Positions 5,652 through 39,196 of a stretch of DNA of 39,303 nucleotides are shown piece by piece. The notes beneath the pieces are model-generated. The model searched no databases, was not told where the DNA came from, and saw only the letters and a list, made by a program, of their open reading frames with translations. This DNA comes from a virus. Where the stretch lies: positions 1-39,303 of the IMG/VR virus record IMGVR_UViG_3300020047_004329; one strand, given 5' to 3'. The position numbers and the translations under genes were made by a program. The first letter of the stretch is position 1, and every line of letters begins with the position of its first letter.

Positions 5652-7172
5652 ATGCCCAATTCTTTGGTCACTATCGACATGGTGACGCGCGAAGCGTTGC
5701 GTGTCGCCCATGAGTCGTGCCAGTTCATTTCCACCACGGATCGCCAATACGATAGCTCGTATGCGAAGACCGGTGCAAAGATCGGCGCATCCCTTCGTGT
5801 TCGCAAGCCGAACCAGTACACCCGCACCCAAGGCTCCCGAGTCATGGATGTGCAGGACCAGGACGAGCAGACCGGCACGATCACTGTGGCAACGCAGGAT
5901 CACGTCGACATGCGTTTCAATTCTGCTGAACTCTCTTTGTCTATCGACGAACTGAGCAAGCGGTACATCGAGCCCGCCGTTAAGGTGCTGATTTCCAGCA
6001 TCGAAGCGGACTATCTGGCCTATGCCACGAAGAAGGTCTACAACGTCGTCGGCTCCGCTGGCACTGCCATCACAACCCTGTCCACTCCTGGCCTGGCGCG
6101 TGCGCGGCTGAACCAGATGCTTGCACCGAAAGACAACAATCGCGCCATCCAGATGGACAGCGTGACGATGGCTGGTCTTGTCAACGGTATGGCTGCGTAC
6201 TTCAACCCGAGTAACGCTATCGCTTCGCAGTACAAAGAAGGCTTGGTGGCTCGCACCTCCATGGCCGACTACTACGAAAACGAGCGTGTCTGGTCGTTGT
6301 CGAATAGCGCAGACGTTACCGTTACGACCGCTGGCGCTGCTGCCGTCACCGATGGCGGAACGAACATCACGCTTGCATCCGTGGCTAATGCTACGACCGC
6401 TGGCATGGTGTTCACTGTCGCTGGTGTCTACGCTTGCCATCCGGAGACGAAGCAGTCTCTTGGTTACCTGCAGCCGTATGTCGTCGTCACTGGCGGCACC
6501 ACGACGCAAGAGGTTAGCCCCGCAACGATTCTGACCGGCCCGCGCCAAAACGTGTGCTCGTCTGCATCGGCGCAACTGGCGACAACTGCGTACAACGGCA
6601 CGGCTGTTGCGGTCACGTTCTTCGGCGCAGCCAGCACGACCTACGCGCAGCCGCTGATGTACCACAAGGAAGCGTTCCAGTTCGTCACGGCAGATTTGCC
6701 ATTGATGGACGACGCTCACAAGTGCGTGCGCCGGACGCAAGACGGGCTGTCGCTTCGCGTGTGGCAGGCATCGGACATCAGGAATGACGAGTTAACAAAT
6801 TCCTTTGCATCTGCGAACGACTTTTCGTTTGCAGTAGCTGCATAAAGACGGCTCCTTTTCGCGGGAACGCGGATCGAACATTTCTCTAATTCGGTGAACA
6901 ACTCTGCGGAGTCAATACCGAGCCAAGCCGCGATAAGCGGAAGGTGTAACGACTAGTCGAAAGACGTAGGGCCAAGCGGTCCGAAATGGGAAACAGCCAG
7001 AACGGCTGAAGAGATAGTCTGCTCTGCATGGTGACATGCAGCGGGTCGAACGACCGGGCGTGAAATAGCGAATCACGTTGAACATTTGGTGCTTATGCGT
7101 ATCGACATCCTGTACGGCATGGCCGCACTTCGCCCCGAGTGGGCTTGCCGAATGATCGGCGCGGCCAGCTAA
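5652..7172 (+). CDS. major capsid (coat) protein, P22 gp5-like, intron-split: join(5652..6792,7090..7172), 407 aa
   Basis: The exon 1 ORF runs on into a non-protein-like tail (stop 6843-6845). In the same frame, 7090-7172 encodes LLMRIDILYGMAALRPEWACRMIGAAS*. This matches the P22 coat C-terminus ([28 protein letters not shown]) with identical DI-to-RI spacing. A terminator follows. Confidence 0.8.
6793..7089 (+). ncRNA. group I self-splicing intron (IA2, T4 td-like), no internal ORF
   Basis: 7014-7042 (atagtctgctctgcatggtgacatgcagc) and 6947-6955 (taacgacta) match the T4 td intron as I remember it. Foldable elements: P2 6858-6873 (GGAA loop), P3 6881-6886/6988-6993, P4 6891-6895/6917-6921, P5 6901-6912, P6 6927-6940, P7 6951-6955/7015-7019, P7.1 6956-6965 (GAAA), P8 6994-7008, P9 7024-7041 (GUGA). 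The IGS ggctc (6850-6854) pairs with exon GAGU, with a U6792-G6851 wobble. The terminal G is 7089. Confidence 0.8.
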
Positions 7173-31029: not shown

Positions 31030-33261
31030 ATGGCTAAAGAGATTCTAGACGAATACAGCGAATTCATCCAAGCGAAAGCGGAGGCCAGCACCCCGGTGGG
31101 CTTTGAGCCCAAAGACATGGGGGCTGATTTGTTCGACTTCCAGCGGGCGATTGTCGAATGGGCATGTAAGCGCGGGCGGGCTGCGATCTTTGCGGATACC
31201 GGCCTGGGCAAGACTGCCATGCAGGTCGAATGGGCAAGGCAGGTCAACGAGCACACCGGGGGCGATGTTCTGATTGCTGCGCCCTTGTGTGTTGCACAGC
31301 AAACGGTCGAAGAGGCCGCAAAGTTTGGCATCCATGTCCGCTACTGCCGGGACAAGAAAGACGCCAAGCCGGGGATCACGATTACCAACTATGAAATGCT
31401 GGAGCGGTTCAACCCGGCAGACTTCGCTGGCGTGGTTTTGGATGAATCCTCGATTCTCAAGGCGCACGACAGCAAGACCCGCGCACGCATCACGGCCATG
31501 TTTCGGGATACGCCTTACAAGCTGTCTTGCACGGCCACGCCATCGCCAAATGATCACATGGAGCTTGGCAACCAGGCTGAGTTTCTCGGGGTTATGTCGG
31601 CGGTCGAAATGCTGGCAATGTTCTTTGTTCACGATGGCGGAGACACATCGCAATGGCGACTCAAGGGCCACGGCAAGACGCGGTTTTGGGAGTGGATGGC
31701 TACGTGGTCGATCTGCATCCGCAATCCTGCCGATCTTGGCTTTGATGGGTCCCGCTACAACTTGCCTGGACTGCGCATGCATCAGCATGTTGTCGAGTCT
31801 CCGGAAGCATTGCCAGGCCAGTTGTTCAGCGGCATTGCGCAAACCCTGACAGAACGCCGGAATGCCAAGCGCCAGAGCATGGCGGAGCGCATCCAAGTGA
31901 CCGCCGATTTAATCAACAGCCACAACCGGCCCGCCATCGTCTGGTGCCACCTGAATGATGAATCAAAAGCCATCGCAGCAACAATCCCGGATGCCGTAGA
32001 GGTCACTGGCTCGATGACACTGGACCAGAAAGAGGCCGCGATCGTGGCCTTCACACATGGCACGAAGCGAGTCATTGTTACCAAGCCATCTATAGCGGGT
32101 TTCGGCATGAATTGGCAGCACTGCCATGACATGGTTTTTGCTGGCCTGGATGACAGCTATGAGTCGTTCTACCAAGCCATTCGGCGGTGCCATCGTTTTG
32201 GACAGCATCACATCGTGGATGTGCACCTTGTCTCTGCCGAGTCCGAAGGCGCAGTAAAGGCGAATCTTGAGCGCAAACAGGCGCAGGCAGACGACATGGC
32301 TGATTCGATGGTGGCGCACATGCGCGAAATGACGCAACAAGCAATTAAGGGGGCGGCGGTGGAAAAGAGTGAATACAAGCGCGAAGTGGCGCATGGTAAT
32401 GGCTGGACGGTGCACCTTGGCGACTGCGTGGAAGTGGCCCGCGACATGCCCGACAACAGCATCGACTACTCGGTTTTCTCGCCGCCATTCGCATCGCTCT
32501 ACACCTACAGCAACAGCGACAGGGACATGGGGAACTGCAAGACGACCAGCGAGTTCTATGAGCATTTCCGGTTTTTGGTGCGCGAGTTGTACCGCGTCAT
32601 CAAGCCGGGTCGGTTGCTGTCTTTCCATTGCATGGACTTGCAGACATCAAAGTTTCGCGACGGAGTGATCGGCCTGCACGACTTCACTGGCGAACTGACC
32701 CGCATGTTCACGGAAGAGGGATGGATTTACCACTCCAAGGTGACGATCTGGAAAGACCCGGTAACGGCCATGCAGCGCACAAAAGCGCTCGGGCTACTGC
32801 ACAAGACCATCCGCAAGGATTCCAGCATGTCGCGCCAGGGCATCGCCGACTATCTGGTGACGATGAGAAAGCCGGGGGACAACGCGGAGCCCATCGCGCA
32901 CACACACGAAACATTCCCGGTCCAGAAGTGGCAGCGCTACGCATCACCCGTTTGGATGGACATAAACCCGTCTAGGACGCTTCAATTCAAGACGGCAAGG
33001 GAGTCGGACGACGAACGCCACATATGCCCGCTGCAGCTTGATGTGATCGAACGGGCCATGGAGCTTTGGAGCAATCCCGGCGATCTGGTTTTCTCGCCAT
33101 TCACCGGCATAGGTTCAGAGGGTTACGTCTCGATTGAAATGGGCCGGAAGTTTGTGGGCGCTGAGTTGAAGCGCAGTTATTGGGAGCTTGCAAAGCGAAA
33201 TCTGTCCGAAGCCCGCGAGCATCAAGAAACGGGGTTATTCGCAGAACTGGAAACGGCATGA
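31030..33261 (+). CDS. SNF2-family helicase fused to N6A/N4C DNA methyltransferase
   Basis: 743 aa. Helicase motifs: ADTGLGKT, VLDESS, CTATPSPN, QAIRRCHRFGQ. The C-terminal beta-class MTase has SPPF (motif IV) before FSPFTGIGSEG (motif I). Confidence 0.85.
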   Translation: MAKEILDEYSEFIQAKAEASTPVGFEPKDMGADLFDFQRAIVEWACKRGRAAIFADTGLGKTAMQVEWARQVNEHTGGDVLIAAPLCVAQQTVEEAAKFGIHVRYCRDKKDAKPGITITNYEMLERFNPADFAGVVLDESSILKAHDSKTRARITAMFRDTPYKLSCTATPSPNDHMELGNQAEFLGVMSAVEMLAMFFVHDGGDTSQWRLKGHGKTRFWEWMATWSICIRNPADLGFDGSRYNLPGLRMHQHVVESPEALPGQLFSGIAQTLTERRNAKRQSMAERIQVTADLINSHNRPAIVWCHLNDESKAIAATIPDAVEVTGSMTLDQKEAAIVAFTHGTKRVIVTKPSIAGFGMNWQHCHDMVFAGLDDSYESFYQAIRRCHRFGQHHIVDVHLVSAESEGAVKANLERKQAQADDMADSMVAHMREMTQQAIKGAAVEKSEYKREVAHGNGWTVHLGDCVEVARDMPDNSIDYSVFSPPFASLYTYSNSDRDMGNCKTTSEFYEHFRFLVRELYRVIKPGRLLSFHCMDLQTSKFRDGVIGLHDFTGELTRMFTEEGWIYHSKVTIWKDPVTAMQRTKALGLLHKTIRKDSSMSRQGIADYLVTMRKPGDNAEPIAHTHETFPVQKWQRYASPVWMDINPSRTLQFKTARESDDERHICPLQLDVIERAMELWSNPGDLVFSPFTGIGSEGYVSIEMGRKFVGAELKRSYWELAKRNLSEAREHQETGLFAELETA

Positions 33262-33455
33262 CACAAGCAGAAATCCTAGTACGCGCTATCAGGCGCAAGG
33301 CAATGACCTACGGCGACCTAGAGGCACTGCGCGTTTCTACATGCCCATGGAAACGATTGCAGGAAGCTGGACATCGTTTCTTGAAAGACGGCGAGCAGAT
33401 TGTGCGCAAGGTAGGGAGCGATGGCCTGGTGCGGATTGGGGTGACGAAGCTATGA
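33258..33455 (+). CDS. hypothetical protein
   Basis: Start trimmed to the ATG at 33258 (ATGA overlap). 65 aa. Confidence 0.45.
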   Translation: MTQAEILVRAIRRKAMTYGDLEALRVSTCPWKRLQEAGHRFLKDGEQIVRKVGSDGLVRIGVTKL

Positions 33456-34114
33456 CCCTGCAGATAAAGGACTGGAGCAAGTTCCAGCACTTCAAGGACC
33501 GCACGCCGCCATGGGTGAAGCTGTACCGAACCCTGTTGGATGACATTGAATGGCACAAGCTCGATGGTGTATCAGCAAAGTACCTCGTGATGCTTTGGCT
33601 GATAGCTGCAGAAACAGACCACGGCACATTGCCAGACACCGAAGAGATAGCGTTTCGGTTACGGACTGATATCAAGACGATATCAAAACTGATACCAAAG
33701 TTGCATCACTGGATAGTCGACGTTGATATCAAGACGATATCAAAAGTGAGATCCAAAGTGCCCGGAGAGACAGAGACAGAGACAGAGACAGAGACAGAGA
33801 GAGAGGCAATGCTGCTCTCTCAATTTTCGCCAAGACACCGGGAAACCGCAAAAGCCAAACGCCCGGACCTCCATGCCGAACGGACTTGGCTTTCGTTCTG
33901 CGGGTACTACGAACCGGAAAAGCGCAATCACACGAACTGGCTGAACTGGCTGGCCCGCGAAACCGGGGGAGCAGACAAGCCGCCATCGGTGCATGACGCC
34001 GACAGCAGGGCATCGGTTGAGGCGCTCGGGATGTCTCGGGGCATGGGCAAATGGAACGAAATGACGGAACGATGGGACGCATACGCCAGCCGCGTGAAAG
34101 GAATTCCAGCATGA
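33452..34114 (+). CDS. replication-initiation / origin-binding protein candidate
   Basis: Start trimmed to the ATG at 33452 (ATGA overlap). 220 aa. N-terminal W.KF.HF......W.KLY..LLDD.EW..L motif. The gene contains iterons and a microsatellite, much as lambda O contains ori. Confidence 0.45.
   Translation: MTLQIKDWSKFQHFKDRTPPWVKLYRTLLDDIEWHKLDGVSAKYLVMLWLIAAETDHGTLPDTEEIAFRLRTDIKTISKLIPKLHHWIVDVDIKTISKVRSKVPGETETETETETEREAMLLSQFSPRHRETAKAKRPDLHAERTWLSFCGYYEPEKRNHTNWLNWLARETGGADKPPSVHDADSRASVEALGMSRGMGKWNEMTERWDAYASRVKGIPA
33667..33806 (+). repeat. candidate origin: two 22-bp iterons plus (CAGAGA)n purine tract
   Basis: tgatatcaagacgatatcaaaa occurs at 33667-33688 and 33724-33745, each with two GATATC palindromes. 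A GAGACA-type hexanucleotide microsatellite at 33765-33806 encodes (ET)6. Confidence 0.45.
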
Positions 34115-35755: not shown

Positions 35756-36045
35756 GCAAGATCACGGCAAGCGCAAACGGCGAAGACTGCCAGGTGCGGA
35801 TTGTTGGCGTGTGCACATTCGACCCTGCCAAAACCATATGGAGCCATGCGCGGCACGGTTCGGCAGGTAAGGGCAAGAGCATCAAGGCGCTAGACATTGC
35901 TGGCGCGTATGCCTGCACGGCATGCGATGCCGCCTATGACCAACTACAGGGGGTCGGGCATATGACGCGGCAGGAAGTCGATTTAGATTGGTTCCACGGC
36001 CATCTAAGGTCGCTGGTGATATTGGCTAACAAGGGGTTGATATGA
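35752..36045 (+). CDS. YbcO/DUF1364-like protein
   Basis: 97 aa with a GTG start (GTGA overlap). The GEDCQVRI.GVC..DP..T.W.H...G.GK..K..D......C..C pattern resembles lambdoid YbcO-family proteins. Confidence 0.55.
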   Translation: MSKITASANGEDCQVRIVGVCTFDPAKTIWSHARHGSAGKGKSIKALDIAGAYACTACDAAYDQLQGVGHMTRQEVDLDWFHGHLRSLVILANKGLI

Positions 36046-36587
36046 GCGATGAGACTTGGAAGCAGCTTCCGGGGTATGGCGGGCACTACGACGTTTCCGA
36101 CATGGGGCGCGTAAGGGTAAGGGACCGGCATGTAGAAAGAAAGCACCCAACCGGCATGATTGTTAAGTTCTTTTACCCTGGCCGACTTTTGCAGCCATGC
36201 GCATCAGGCAGGTACGGGCACCAATCCGTTCACGTTGGGGTCGGTGGAAAGCGGTACAGCTTGGCTGTGCATTGGATGGTACTGGTTACGTTTGTAGGGC
36301 CGCGCCCGGAAGGCATGGAGGCATGTCACGGGAACGGCAATGCGTCGGACAACAGGCTTCAAAACTTGCGATGGGATACGCATTTCGAGAACAACCAAGA
36401 CAGAAAGCGTCACGGACGTTATGCAACTGGCGCAAAGCATGTCATGGCAAAACTGACCGACGAAACCGTGCGGGAGATCAAGCAATCTAGCATGAATGGA
36501 CTGCAAGTGGCGCAGCGTTACGGCATCGGAACCAGCACGGCTCACAGGATATTGACTGGCAAGTCTTGGGCGCATGTCTCCGCTTAA
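36042..36587 (+). CDS. HNH homing endonuclease (NUMOD4 + HNH), second copy
   Basis: 181 aa with WKQLPGYGGHYDVSDMG (NUMOD4) and HWMVLVTF...CHGNGNASDNRLQNLRW (HNH). Same architecture as 8893-9414. Confidence 0.85.
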   Translation: MSDETWKQLPGYGGHYDVSDMGRVRVRDRHVERKHPTGMIVKFFYPGRLLQPCASGRYGHQSVHVGVGGKRYSLAVHWMVLVTFVGPRPEGMEACHGNGNASDNRLQNLRWDTHFENNQDRKRHGRYATGAKHVMAKLTDETVREIKQSSMNGLQVAQRYGIGTSTAHRILTGKSWAHVSA

Positions 36588-36648: not shown

Positions 36649-37029
36649 TTGATCGACCTCCACCACATAGACGCCCGACACGACTCGGTAAACATTCGCC
36701 TGGAATCGTGGGCAAGGTGGGTGCAAGTCAGGCCACAGCCCTGGAAGATGCAGCCCATGTTTCGCCTCTACAAAGCACCGCCACAGTGGGAGCCACGTGA
36801 ACTGAAGGTGGAGGCGAACCCCATTGAAGCCATGGAAATCGAGCGCATCGTTTCGCACTTGCCAGAAAAGCACCGGCACGCACTGCGCTGGTTTTATGTG
36901 TACCCGTACATCAGCGACTCGCGCATTCGCAGGGAGTTAGGCGAAACGCGGGCGGGGTTGGTGGATTTGCTGCACAAGAGCAGGTCTATGGTTGTCAATC
37001 GGTTGCGGGAAAAGATAAGGAGCGAGTGA
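36649..37029 (+). CDS. late-gene antiterminator, Q-like
   Basis: 126 aa with a TTG start. The LESWARWV motif and its position just upstream of a promoter-plus-terminator unit and the terminase genes fit the phage antitermination Q family. Confidence 0.6.
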   Translation: MIDLHHIDARHDSVNIRLESWARWVQVRPQPWKMQPMFRLYKAPPQWEPRELKVEANPIEAMEIERIVSHLPEKHRHALRWFYVYPYISDSRIRRELGETRAGLVDLLHKSRSMVVNRLREKIRSE

Positions 37030-37298
37030 TGTTTTTTCACAAGAAGTCGGACATTGAAGGATTGCAGGAAGAGATAAAGGCATTAAAGGCGCGACTGTGG
37101 GCGCTGGAAGATGCCACAGCAGTTTATGAGGCCCCTTCTCGTTTCTCATTTGTTGGGTGCAAGCAAATAAAGATAAATGCCGCCATCAATGCTATGTTGC
37201 GGAACATGGGACTTCAGCTTAAATCAGTGCCGGCAACACATGAATATGTCACTGCCGAACTGATGCCGGTAAATAATGACTTGCACACATCGGAGTAA
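37026..37298 (+). CDS. hypothetical protein (AT-richer insert)
   Basis: 90-aa ORF with an ATGA overlap to Q. The late promoter -35 lies in its last codons. Confidence 0.5.
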   Translation: MMFFHKKSDIEGLQEEIKALKARLWALEDATAVYEAPSRFSFVGCKQIKINAAINAMLRNMGLQLKSVPATHEYVTAELMPVNNDLHTSE

Positions 37299-37309
37299 TG
37301 TGTTATTGT
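37281..37309 (+). promoter_or_regulatory. late promoter (PR'-like)
   Basis: TTGCAC (37281-37286), 17 nt, TATTGT (37304-37309). About 50-70 nt downstream is a strong terminator, mirroring the lambda PR'-tR' (6S RNA) unit acted on by Q. Confidence 0.5.
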
Positions 37310-37362
37310 GCGCGGGTCAATAGACGTTTATCCACGCTTTGCGGCGGCGGAACTGTCAGTAA

Positions 37363-37388
37363 AGCCAGGCAAGTCGCTGGCTTTTTTC
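37363..37388 (+). terminator. intrinsic terminator (tR'-like)
   Basis: The agccag-gcaagtcg-ctggct hairpin is followed by TTTTT. Confidence 0.65.
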
Positions 37389-37394
37389 GTTTCT

Positions 37395-37500
37395 GCATCA
37401 GTAGCTCAGTGGCAGAGCAGTCCCCGCCCCGAGTAGCTGGTTTCCAGCGCGGCCAGCGATGCGGTATTGGCCGCTGGTTCGAGTCCAGCCTGATGCACCA
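37395..37500 (+). tRNA. tRNA-shaped gene without a canonical anticodon arm (106 nt, encoded CCA)
   Basis: Perfect 7-bp acceptor stem (GCATCAG/CTGATGC). D arm GCTC-AGTGGCA-GAGC. T arm GCTGG-TTCGAGT-CCAGC. Discriminator A plus CCA. The 53 nt between the D and T arms contain no 5-bp/7-nt anticodon hairpin in any register I tried. Confidence 0.55.
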
Positions 37501-37531
37501 TTTGCCCTCCTTGGTCGCTTCGGCGGTCTTC

Positions 37532-37564
37532 GCCCCTGCTTTGAGTAATCGGCAGGGGCTTTTT
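37532..37564 (+). terminator. second intrinsic terminator in late leader
   Basis: Perfect 8-bp stem gcccctgc/gcaggggc with a 12-nt loop, then TTTTT. Confidence 0.6.
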
Positions 37565-37596: not shown

Positions 37597-37914
37597 ATGG
37601 CTAACTCAACAGCGTTTAAGAAAGGCGAGAAAAAGCCGAACCAGGGCAAGCGCGGACCCGGCAAAGTGACATTGCAAGCCCGTGAAGCTATCGCCAAGCT
37701 CGCAGACGGCAACGTCGATAGGTTGCAGGGCTGGCTAGACGATATCGCCGCTGATGACAAACAAGGGCCGGCGGTTGCCTTCAAGCTGTTCATGGATGTG
37801 CTGGAGTACCACGTTCCGAAGCTGGCCCGCACAGAACACACCGGCAAAGACGGCGACGTAATCCGCCATCAGGTGATTACGCGCACGATCATTGACCCCC
37901 GTGCTGAATCTTGA
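37597..37914 (+). CDS. terS: terminase small subunit
   Basis: 105 aa with a basic N-terminus (FKKGEKKPNQGKRGPG). Immediately upstream of and overlapping the large terminase gene. Confidence 0.6.
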   Translation: MANSTAFKKGEKKPNQGKRGPGKVTLQAREAIAKLADGNVDRLQGWLDDIAADDKQGPAVAFKLFMDVLEYHVPKLARTEHTGKDGDVIRHQVITRTIIDPRAES

Positions 37915-39196
37915 GACTCCGCGCATATTCGTACCGCTGCTAAAGCCATCAAGATACAAAGGCGTTGACGGCGGGCGCGGTTCCGGCAAGTCTCATTTCT
38001 TTGCGGAGAAGTTGATAGAGGACTGCATGGCAGAGCCGGGAGACTTTGGCGAGGGAATGCGCGCAGTCTGTATCCGCGAAGTACAAAAGGACTTGGCGCA
38101 GTCTTCCAAGGCGTTGATTGAGTCGAAGCTGAGTAAGTACGGGCTTGGCGAGGCTGACGGGTTCAAGGTGTTCAAGACTGAGATTGAAACGCCTGGCGAC
38201 GGCCTGATGATCTTCAAGGGCATGCAGGACTACACAGCAGACTCAATCAAGTCACTGGAAGGGTTCAAACGTGCTTGGTGGGAAGAGGCGCAAACGGCCA
38301 CGGCAATATCACTGAACATGCTACGCCCGACACTGCGGGCCGATGCTTCGGAGTTGTGGTTTAGCTGGAATCCCCGGCGCAAGACTGACGCGGTAGACGA
38401 AATGCTTCGCGGCGAGTCGCTGCCAACAGACGCAACAGTCATCCGGGCCAATTGGCGTGATAACCCGTGGTTTCCGTCAACCCTGGAGCAAGAGCGTTTA
38501 GATTGCCTGCGCATGCAGCCAGAGCAGTACGACCACATATGGGAGGGCGGTTATGCAACCGTTCTGTCTGGCGCTTACTATGCAAGGTCGATAGCTGACG
38601 CAACAACGCAAGGCCGAATAGGTCGCGTGTCTGCTGACCCGCTGATGACGCGGCAAGCGTTCTTTGACATCGGCGGGACTGGTGCAAAGGCTGACGCTGT
38701 AGCGATATGGGTCGCGCAGTTCATCGGCAAAGAGATACGCATTCTGGACTACTACGAAGCAGTCGGGCAACCGCTGGCGGTTCATCTGGAATGGCTTCGC
38801 TCACGCGGCCATGGATCGGCAAAGATCGTGCTACCGCACGACGGTGACACCAACGATAAGGTGTACGACGTAAGTTATGCGTCTGCATGCCGTGCTGCGC
38901 AGTTCAAGGTAGAAGTGATCCCGAACCAGGGCAAAGGCGCAGCAAAGGCGCGCATCGAAGCCGGGAGGCGTCTATTCCCCGCGTGCTGGTTTAACCAGGC
39001 CACAACGCAAGCGGGACTTGATGCGCTGGGCTGGTATCACGAAAAGAAGGACGACAAGCGAAACATTGGGCTTGGTCCTGAACACGATTGGGCAAGCCAC
39101 GGAAGTGATGCATTCGGCCTGATGTGTGTCGCATACGAAGAGCCTAAGGTAAAGAAACCACCGGCAGCACAAAGATCAACCTCTTGGATGGCCTGA
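37892..39196 (+). CDS. terL: terminase large subunit
   Basis: 434 aa with Walker A GGRGSGKS after RYKGVDGG, a downstream Walker B/nuclease region, and PBSX/P22-type layout. The start is TTG at 37892 or GTG at 37901. Confidence 0.9.
   Translation: MTPVLNLETPRIFVPLLKPSRYKGVDGGRGSGKSHFFAEKLIEDCMAEPGDFGEGMRAVCIREVQKDLAQSSKALIESKLSKYGLGEADGFKVFKTEIETPGDGLMIFKGMQDYTADSIKSLEGFKRAWWEEAQTATAISLNMLRPTLRADASELWFSWNPRRKTDAVDEMLRGESLPTDATVIRANWRDNPWFPSTLEQERLDCLRMQPEQYDHIWEGGYATVLSGAYYARSIADATTQGRIGRVSADPLMTRQAFFDIGGTGAKADAVAIWVAQFIGKEIRILDYYEAVGQPLAVHLEWLRSRGHGSAKIVLPHDGDTNDKVYDVSYASACRAAQFKVEVIPNQGKGAAKARIEAGRRLFPACWFNQATTQAGLDALGWYHEKKDDKRNIGLGPEHDWASHGSDAFGLMCVAYEEPKVKKPPAAQRSTSWMA

Follow-up and report, generated by a model that had tools for sequence, protein, structure and literature searches.

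We analysed a 39,303-nucleotide (nt) stretch of viral DNA, hereafter the window, which comprises positions 1 to 39,303 of the IMG/VR record IMGVR_UViG_3300020047_004329, and focused on a 106-nt transfer RNA (tRNA)-like element (TLE) lying between a putative late regulator gene and the terminase genes terS and terL. The TLE has the body of a tRNA, but its anticodon arm is replaced by an insert, and the closest relative found lacks it between nearly identical flanks. We tentatively favour, at slightly less than an even chance, the reading that the TLE is a recently gained, rearranged tRNA-derived gene, which does not decode and which the late leader carries as optional cargo.

A tRNA body without an anticodon arm

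Searched over the whole 39-kb window, the Rfam tRNA model (RF00005) matched the TLE with 48.1 bits (gathering score 29; expectation value, E = 2e-7), in an alignment that spans model positions 1-71, i.e., from end to end. Here, 44 nt of the TLE, which cmscan left unaligned, replace 13 inner model positions of the anticodon arm. All pairs across the acceptor, D and T arms are Watson-Crick (16/16), and the tertiary core is intact (U8, A14, G15:C48, G18G19, G53, U54U55C56, A58 and C61). The five nucleotides preceding the T stem, UGGCC (37468-37472), are compatible with a normal class I variable loop, and the RNase P determinants are likewise intact, comprising a stack of 12 base pairs (bp) from the acceptor and T stems, the elbow, RCCA and a U at position -1. 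Standard ARAGORN made zero calls of a tRNA or a transfer-messenger RNA (tmRNA) in the window. The TLE as a whole folds with z = -2.47. Constraining it to the cloverleaf gives -40.6 kcal/mol, versus -44.2 kcal/mol for the minimum free energy (MFE) fold; a mini-hairpin in the insert has the same stem as the T arm, and for this reason the unconstrained MFE fold pairs the strands of one with those of the other.

Where a tRNA has its anticodon arm and variable loop, the TLE has a central region of 53 nt; when all registers of this region were enumerated, none gave a 5-bp stem that is paired throughout and closes a 7-nt loop. Three registers are paired at four of the five positions, none of them with a U at loop position 2 (no U33), and a residual stem, GUCCC/GGUAU, is seen. 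A first-pass annotation, made by reading the sequence without database searches, had described a tRNA body lacking its anticodon arm, together with the mini-hairpin; both are borne out, the former by the Rfam score and the missing 5-bp stem and 7-nt loop. A standard tRNA with a clear anticodon, which that annotation had named as an outcome that would overturn it, was not obtained by folding, and ARAGORN in intron mode produced only a forced tRNA-Trp(CCA), considered below.

The central 53 nt fold at -17.9 kcal/mol (z = -0.29), and 76/200 shuffles fold at least equally well, so the insert bears no sign of selected structure and a specially stable, designed arm is rejected. With the cloverleaf enforced, this region forms an irregular long arm. 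The constrained fold contains a 4 × 4 internal loop, AGUA/GAUG, which we take to be like one half of loop E of 5S ribosomal RNA; it has no conservation support and is not used as evidence here.

The insert and the tRNA body have several words in common (AGTAGCT, GCTGGTT, TCCAGC and GATGC), and the sharing of 6-mers between them exceeds that in shuffles (p = 0.015). Read in order, the repeats look like an acceptor end with the start of a D stem, a T arm without its CGAG, and a piece of the 3′ acceptor strand. Elsewhere in the window, the insert has neither a significant copy nor a significant complement; an antisense regulator is rejected on this ground, as is a repeated palindromic mobile element, of which the window holds no further copy. 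As to the parent, the T arm of the TLE with adjoining nucleotides is identical to that of phage tRNA-Arg (S-TIM54) and tRNA-Lys (Arash) genes. The TLE is also about 90% identical, over its 5′ 32 nt plus its 3′ 29 nt, to a gene deposited as 'tRNA-OTHER' in the Streptomyces phages AbbeyMikolon and Nesbitt.

An Rfam scan of the TLE at E up to 10 brought no family besides tRNA near its threshold. The first-pass annotation had proposed checks against tmRNA and YrlA-type models, and neither indicated membership. For tmRNA, ARAGORN -m was empty even at an 80% threshold and there was no Rfam match at E up to 10; pair 3:70 of the TLE is A:U, not the G3:U70 of tmRNA. The YrlA model reached 13.5 bits versus a gathering score of 69 and covered the T arm alone.

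The late leader and its exchangeable slot

The TLE occupies what appears to be a slot in the late leader, between an intrinsic terminator that goes with the cargo, t1, and a conserved box followed by a second terminator, t2 (Table 1). The closest relative found, contig L256, is 79/85 identical to the window from the -35 element of the late promoter to 37363 and 62/62 identical from the box through t2, and the window sequence between these flanks (37364-37501) is replaced by CCCCC. Minimal leaders with neither t1 nor cargo are found in L148, whose regulator is 83% identical, in L252 and in L256, and hairpins homologous to t1 are present in L138, L254, L144 and L141. Other contigs carry other cargo: an open reading frame (ORF) fills the slot in L254, a small ORF with a five-codon remnant of the L254 ORF fills it in L138, and other non-coding or coding DNA does so in L141, L144, L249, L251 and L255.

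An Rfam scan found no tRNA in the 18 contigs with a homologue of the regulator, several of which are too short to reach the slot. None of the 80 loci with a terS homologue showed BLAST similarity to the TLE, and none of the first 60 had a tRNA according to ARAGORN. Hence, these sequence comparisons indicate that the TLE is optional, recently exchanged cargo; the near-identity of the L256 flanks fits a recent exchange and does not prove it. As L256, L148 and L252 express the same operon without the TLE, it is not required for terminase expression.

Conservation in relatives, on which the first-pass annotation had let its proposal depend, was thus not seen: L256 lacks exactly t1 and the TLE, and the 18 related contigs contain no tRNA. 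Nor are the two terminators a single designed unit. Since t2 is a part of the conserved leader and t1 travels with the cargo, the two-terminator arrangement is modular, and the effect of t1 is that the cargo stays silent until the terminators are read through.

The slot itself holds a further candidate in four of the more distant relatives. In L249 (2470-2640), L251 (2470-2690), L255 (2470-2680) and L141 (3930-4110), it contains 150-260 nt of non-coding DNA, and these stretches share the long-range complementary motifs CUUAAGGUUGAAU ... GCCAACCUUAACUAAC. Judged from sequence, they may represent an undescribed structured RNA of late leaders.

The order of promoter, leader, terminator(s) and terS/terL holds in the window and in L138, L148, L144, L141, L254, L256, L249 and L252, which argues that the region between the regulator gene and the terminase genes is a genuine late leader. 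It upholds the earlier likening of this region to lambda PR′/tR′, as the relatives keep the promoter, the leader and t2 between their Q-like and terminase genes. Both intrinsic terminators that had been noted there were also recovered. A terminator scan detected t1 (free energy, dG, -11 kcal/mol) and missed the stronger t2 (dG -17.7 kcal/mol) because of its 12-nt loop; in L138, L148, L252, L249 and L255, the place of t2 is taken by terminator hairpins whose stems differ. The relatives' leaders also keep CAATAGACG with an CCUUGCGG hairpin, as well as the ribosome-binding site of terS.

The promoter, which had been called a good sigma70 promoter, matches only 7/12 consensus positions, and for this reason the promoter scan made no call. 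It does, however, have a TGn extended -10 element and is conserved: the TTGC (-35) and TAT (-10) positions are invariant across six related leaders, TGTG precedes the -10 element in four, and the extended -10 consensus in the relatives is TGTGnTATTGT. Conservation is a better argument for this promoter than the consensus match. The 3′ end of a 90-aa ORF overlaps the -35 hexamer; this ORF has no Pfam or PHROG match and no entry in the protein collection searched, and it is absent from the equivalent position in L138, L148 and L256.

The regulator gene had been named Q-like. In support of this, its product matches PHROG phrog_79, 'anti-termination protein Q-like' (E = 0.0024), and its AlphaFold model (predicted local distance difference test, pLDDT, 81) resembles full-length Q21 in Foldseek (6p1b/6p18/6jnx; template modelling score, TM, 0.48-0.58, probability 0.93-0.98, E about 0.3). 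All of these similarities are weak, and the matches of the model to sigma region 4 (probability 1.0, E 0.1) are at least equal to those with Q21. A Pfam search with the protein itself gave no match, and members of its family gave weak matches to Sigma70_r4_2 (5/23) and to Phage_antitermQ (4/23). The Q-like assignment of this ORF is therefore a weak one, of sequence and predicted fold similarity. The protein has 42 homologues in the protein collection, and a search of IMG/VR found no close relative of it. In all of the longer related contigs terminase genes, belonging to several terminase families, lie directly downstream of the homologue. Upstream of the regulator gene, an HNH endonuclease gene (HNH_3 + NUMOD4; 36042-36587, + strand) separates it from a YbcO-like nuclease gene; as the closest relatives L138 and L148 have no HNH gene at the equivalent position, it is probably a free-standing homing endonuclease insertion.

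Between the TLE and t2, the leader box CUCCUUG and the small hairpin are present in L138, L148, L252 and L249 with compensatory changes and are identical in L256. The segment 37501-37568 reads as the leader box UUGCCCUCCUUG, then the hairpin GGUCGC-UUCG-GCGGUC and t2. The CUCCUU of the box is anti-Shine-Dalgarno-like and complementary to the terS ribosome-binding site AAGGA, and the segment has a weak, sub-threshold match to the Burkholderia anti-hemB small RNA (sRNA; 17.7 bits vs. 49.5). The box and hairpin may control translation or give rise to an sRNA-like product of the leader.

From this arrangement, a course of expression can be proposed. The TLE starts 5 nt past the U-tract of t1 and has no promoter-like sequence of its own, so it would be transcribed only when transcripts from the late promoter read through t1, presumably after modification of the polymerase by the Q-like protein. 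RNase P recognises the acceptor/T stack, the elbow and RCCA (PMC4919913), and tRNA 3′ processing in Escherichia coli starts with a cut 1-3 nt downstream of CCA, after which RNase P cleaves (PMC2190699). By these substrate rules, RNase P would cut the TLE transcript at 37394/37395 and 3′ trimming would stop at the CCA at 37500, which would free a stable RNA of roughly 106 nt from the terminase mRNA. This RNA could not be expected to read a codon, as the 44-nt replacement has neither a 5-bp stem with a 7-nt loop nor U33. Its most likely source is a tRNA like those of other phages, in which an internal rearrangement would have disrupted the anticodon arm by copying in parts of the T arm and acceptor of the same gene; the TLE is dispensable for late gene expression.

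Table 1. Features of the late region of the window and members of family F1. Positions refer to the window, except in the last row, where they refer to the loci named.
Feature	Position	Strand	Details
tRNA-like element (TLE)	37395-37500	+	Rfam tRNA match and sequence reading
TLE acceptor stem	37395-37401 with 37490-37496	+	GCAUCAG/CUGAUGC, 7 Watson-Crick pairs
TLE D arm	37404-37418	+	GCUC-AGUGGCA-GAGC
TLE A26	37419	+	
Central region of 53 nt replacing anticodon arm and variable loop	37420-37472	+	
Mini-hairpin	37436-37448	+	GCUGG-UUU-CCAGC
TLE T arm	37473-37489	+	GCUGG-UUCGAGU-CCAGC
TLE A73	37497	+	Discriminator A
TLE encoded CCA	37498-37500	+	
Putative late regulator gene, Q-like	36649-37029	+	C-terminal half resembles sigma-70 region 4
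90-aa ORF between Q-like gene and late promoter	37026-37298	+	3′ end overlaps -35 hexamer
Late promoter	37281-37309	+	-35 TTGCAC 37281-37286, 17-nt spacer, TG 37301-37302, -10 TATTGT 37304-37309
Conserved initial transcribed leader	37310-37360	+	CAATAGACG at 37318-37326, then CUUUGCGG-type hairpin
Intrinsic terminator t1	37361-37389	+	AAAGCCAG-8 nt-CUGGCUUU, then UUUCG; hairpin 37361-37384
Conserved leader box and small hairpin	37501-37531	+	Box UUUGCCCUCCUUG; hairpin GGUCGC-UUCG-GCGGUC (37513-37528)
Intrinsic terminator t2, conserved leader terminator	37532-37564	+	GCCCCUGC-12 nt-GCAGGGGC, then UUUUU; hairpin 37532-37559
terS	37597-37914	+	ORF; homologues L001-L080
terL	37892-39196	+	Terminase_3, E = 2.3e-25
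Insertion/deletion module	37364-37501		Most of t1 and the TLE, versus closest relative found, L256
F1 members	L098 7804-7902; L120 10642-10739; L134 1493-1591(-); L162, L176, L177, L181, L183, L187, L191, L193, L218-L221, L227		

Other tRNA shapes and the rival explanations

Searches for homologues of the TLE were negative throughout. In GenBank phages, blastn with the 2-kb region and with the TLE alone returned only terminase or generic T-arm matches, and a plasmid search returned nothing relevant. Exact patterns in IMG/VR gave 0 matches for the 3′ half of the TLE and 0 for the junction of D stem and insert; the 7 matches to the central 18-mer of the insert were all chance matches in coding DNA. 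In the JGI metagenomes, the flank-gap pattern had 0 matches and the central 22-mer had 4, again by chance in coding DNA. A spurious-ORF check, in which the concatenated six-frame peptides of the TLE were searched against 5.8 billion protein clusters, found no homologue.

Other tRNA-shaped genes without an anticodon arm were nevertheless found. The AbbeyMikolon gene deposited as 'tRNA-OTHER (Thr/Tyr)' (NC_047904.1 41010-41089; L258 198-277) folds as a cloverleaf with a GUAA tetraloop: it is 80 nt long and has no 7-nt loop, and its third arm ends in CCCC-GUAA-GGGG. It is thus an anticodon-less, tRNA-shaped gene in a cultured phage, and it is confined to the two identical phage records (AbbeyMikolon and Nesbitt). 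The 25-nt 3′ half of the TLE had a single match in the GTDB genome collection, an element at L157 6404-6522 that has the acceptor stem, A73, CCA and T arm of the TLE with a different D arm. There, a near-perfect hairpin of 61 nt replaces the anticodon arm, the MFE fold is the cloverleaf (z = -3.55), and the tRNA model did not detect the element at E up to 0.1. The surrounding region (L157 5800-7400, in the Oscillospiraceae metagenome-assembled genome JAZNWG010000428.1) is a tRNA array that is non-coding, exceeds 1.5 kb and has several aberrant members, including a tRNA with a D-loop insertion (about 6546-6646) and another with a 37-nt variable region (6945-7051).

A pattern requiring a TLE-type D arm and T loop separated by 46-62 nt retrieved 57 loci in IMG/VR (L081-L137), and standard ARAGORN left 38/57 uncalled. 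When Rfam was run on 18 of these loci, 13 were found to carry an element of 93-107 nt that scored 31-50 bits as a tRNA, mostly beside ordinary tRNA genes. Some of the pattern loci are ordinary, namely eukaryotic-type, intron-bearing tRNA-Tyr, class II tRNAs and suppressor tRNAs. Overall, tRNA-shaped genes with expanded or replaced anticodon regions seem to be common in phages. The pattern loci include a family, F1, with 16 distinct members, tRNA-shaped genes 98-100 nt long in which the replacement arm contains a conserved hairpin motif, CAUGGYGAAGGRCC. Fourteen pairs of the F1 helix and hairpin change on both sides, and 0/500 shuffles reach the observed covariation values. In the three F1 loci on which Rfam was run (L098, L120 and L134), the neighbours are ordinary tRNA genes, and a tmRNA adjoins in L098 and L134. 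A limited literature search found neither the F1 motif nor any description of phage tRNA-shaped genes with replaced anticodon arms. The anticodon-less elements resemble the TLE in architecture and not in the insert.

Several of these observations weigh against a merely rearranged tRNA gene. The body of the TLE is flawless in its pairs and its tertiary core, and a pseudogene so intact needs either recent damage or a body under selection. The self-duplication on which the proposed rearrangement draws is modest by two other measures (7-mers, p = 0.06; local alignment, p = 0.16). The homologue searches depended on exact words, so that diverged relatives could be missed. The L157 element with its hairpin, the AbbeyMikolon gene with its tetraloop arm and the covarying F1 family are further tRNA-shaped genes that have no anticodon loop.

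A rival reading is a selected tRNA mimic, a kind of natural 'tRNA scaffold', the body of which is kept for processing, modification and stability while the anticodon arm is deliberately replaced; we consider this rather unlikely for the TLE. Such an RNA may bind proteins that recognise the acceptor/T-arm/elbow or the CCA end, and it may act as a late decoy or sponge, for example against host nucleases or toxins whose targets are tRNA bodies or CCA tails, or may present its odd arm to a partner. The perfect body and core of the TLE fit this, as do its strictly late expression, imposed by t1, and the recurrence of anticodon-less tRNA shapes in the IMG/VR pattern loci, the covarying F1, L157 and AbbeyMikolon. 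However, no homologue of the insert was found in the collections searched and the closest relative has no TLE; the fold of the insert is no better than that of shuffles, the tRNA family alone reaches its Rfam threshold, and the analogy with the other elements is only architectural, as their inserts are unrelated. No tRNA-related enzyme was seen among the window ORFs that were checked in the incompletely annotated window. A broader form of the idea, which we likewise regard as unlikely, is that phages have repeatedly built non-decoding RNAs on a tRNA chassis: the acceptor stem, D arm, T arm and CCA would be retained for processing and stabilisation by cellular tRNA enzymes, and the anticodon arm exchanged for a different module. 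The TLE would be a late-expressed member, acting as a decoy for defences recognising tRNA bodies or CCA ends, or carrying an odd arm. Under this chassis reading, the class would also include F1, which occurs in phage tRNA arrays, the AbbeyMikolon 'tRNA-OTHER' and the long-hairpin element of L157.

It is improbable that the TLE serves as a processing or insulation signal, with RNase P and 3′ maturation cuts separating the leader from the terminase message and setting its 5′ end. Its position suits this, as the TLE separates the leader from the terS message and has t1 5 nt upstream and the conserved box immediately downstream, and so do its intact RNase P determinants; there are precedents in t-elements (PMC1920247) and in the E. 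coli sequence of 3′ cleavage followed by RNase P (PMC2190699). Yet relatives with the same leader, box, t2 and start of terS manage without it, L256 being identical over box and t2 and L148 and L252 being minimal.

A working tRNA with an intron-like insertion in its precursor, spliced for example to tRNA-Trp(CCA), is very improbable. The intron mode of ARAGORN gives this tRNA with a 17-nt 'intron', and a self-splicing group I intron at 6834-7041 of the window implies that RNA splicing occurs in this phage. However, the call is forced: the intron would lie at 31/32 and not at the canonical 37/38, and the stem would contain a C-C mismatch and a G-U pair next to a variable region of 19 unpaired nt. 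The cmscan reading of the TLE is a different one. At 31-44 nt, the insert could not accommodate a group I core, and Intron_gpI had no match at the locus even at E up to 10. Moreover, to our knowledge no bulge-helix-bulge endonuclease pathway exists in bacteria, and bacterial tRNA-Trp has G73, which A73 of the TLE does not fit. The intron-like tRNA that the first-pass annotation had listed among its candidate roles is therefore not supported, either by an intron at the canonical site or by a group I core.

Although tRNA gene fragments are common beside integrated elements (PMC9897764), it is scarcely credible that the TLE resembles a tRNA by chance or is a fragment from a phage attachment site, and this reading is effectively refuted by the full-length match to the tRNA model (E = 2e-7 in the window, both halves present, a perfect 7-bp acceptor stem), the window containing no second copy of the 3′ half with 3 mismatches allowed and the site being a late leader rather than an integration module, with no integrase seen among the ORFs checked.

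Two further observations concern other parts of the window. The group I intron at 6834-7041 (+ strand) scored 66.4 bits against Rfam RF00028 (E = 7.6e-15) and is located at the 3′ end of ORF 5652-6845, in the structural-gene region; this ORF (397 aa) has no Pfam match, and the intron probably interrupts a late structural gene. In ORF 33188-34114, a short tandem repeat at about 33750-33800 reads as ETETETETETE when translated in the + frame and as LSLSLSLS from the other strand, and it is possibly a slippage-prone tract in an early gene.

Known systems and implications

The nearest parallel in setting is offered by the lambdoid Shiga toxin (Stx) phages, with their Q/pR′/qut system (PMC6266700) and three tRNAs around stx2a (PMC7946995), in which tRNA-type genes are likewise accessory cargo between the late promoter/terminator and the first late genes and are expressed with the late transcript. 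The Stx-phage tRNAs are canonical and decode, whereas the TLE has no anticodon stem-loop and its regulator is only weakly Q-like. In Stx phage 933W, we take these tRNAs to be ileZ-argN-argO.

In sequence, the body of the TLE is nearly the same as that of the tRNA-OTHER of AbbeyMikolon and Nesbitt, with which it shares the D stem, the T arm and A73 and, with one difference, the acceptor strand (GCAUCCG vs. GCAUCAG); the two differ in length (80 vs. 106 nt) and in the third arm, and the AbbeyMikolon gene lies beside tRNA-Asn near the genome end rather than within a late leader. In plan, it is like engineered tRNA scaffolds, in which the acceptor, D and T arms are intact and a foreign segment replaces the anticodon stem-loop, a design under which the RNA is processed by RNase P and is stable in E. 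coli (PMC3753655). Those scaffolds are man-made, however, and there is no sign, with a fold of z = -0.29, that the TLE insert is a functional cargo.

The tRNA-like domain of tmRNA also combines an acceptor and T arm with CCA and RNase P processing and has no anticodon (PMC3985003). The TLE differs from it in having A3:U70 instead of G3:U70, no pseudoknots, no tag reading frame and a full D arm. YrlA and other bacterial mimics related to Y RNA are, like the TLE, non-decoding RNAs with a tRNA-like module, but the ends of YrlA RNA sit in the Ro-binding stem, whereas those of the TLE form an acceptor stem with CCA. Plant mitochondrial t-elements are tRNA-like structures in mRNA precursors that serve as signals for cleavage by RNase P/Z (PMC1920247); they are organellar, and the relatives of the TLE-bearing phage express the same operon without such an element.

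Genes such as the TLE are treated differently by different tRNA finders, Rfam calling it a tRNA and ARAGORN calling nothing. If the TLE is merely a scrambled tRNA, it is a clean example of how a slot behind a late promoter gains and loses small cargo. If instead it is selected, it joins the anticodon-less, tRNA-shaped genes scattered among phages, a set that is functionally unstudied as far as our limited literature search showed; since many known bacterial defences act on tRNAs, tRNA-shaped decoys are a testable idea. The phage and its natural deletion variant, of the L256 type, would make a ready experimental pair.

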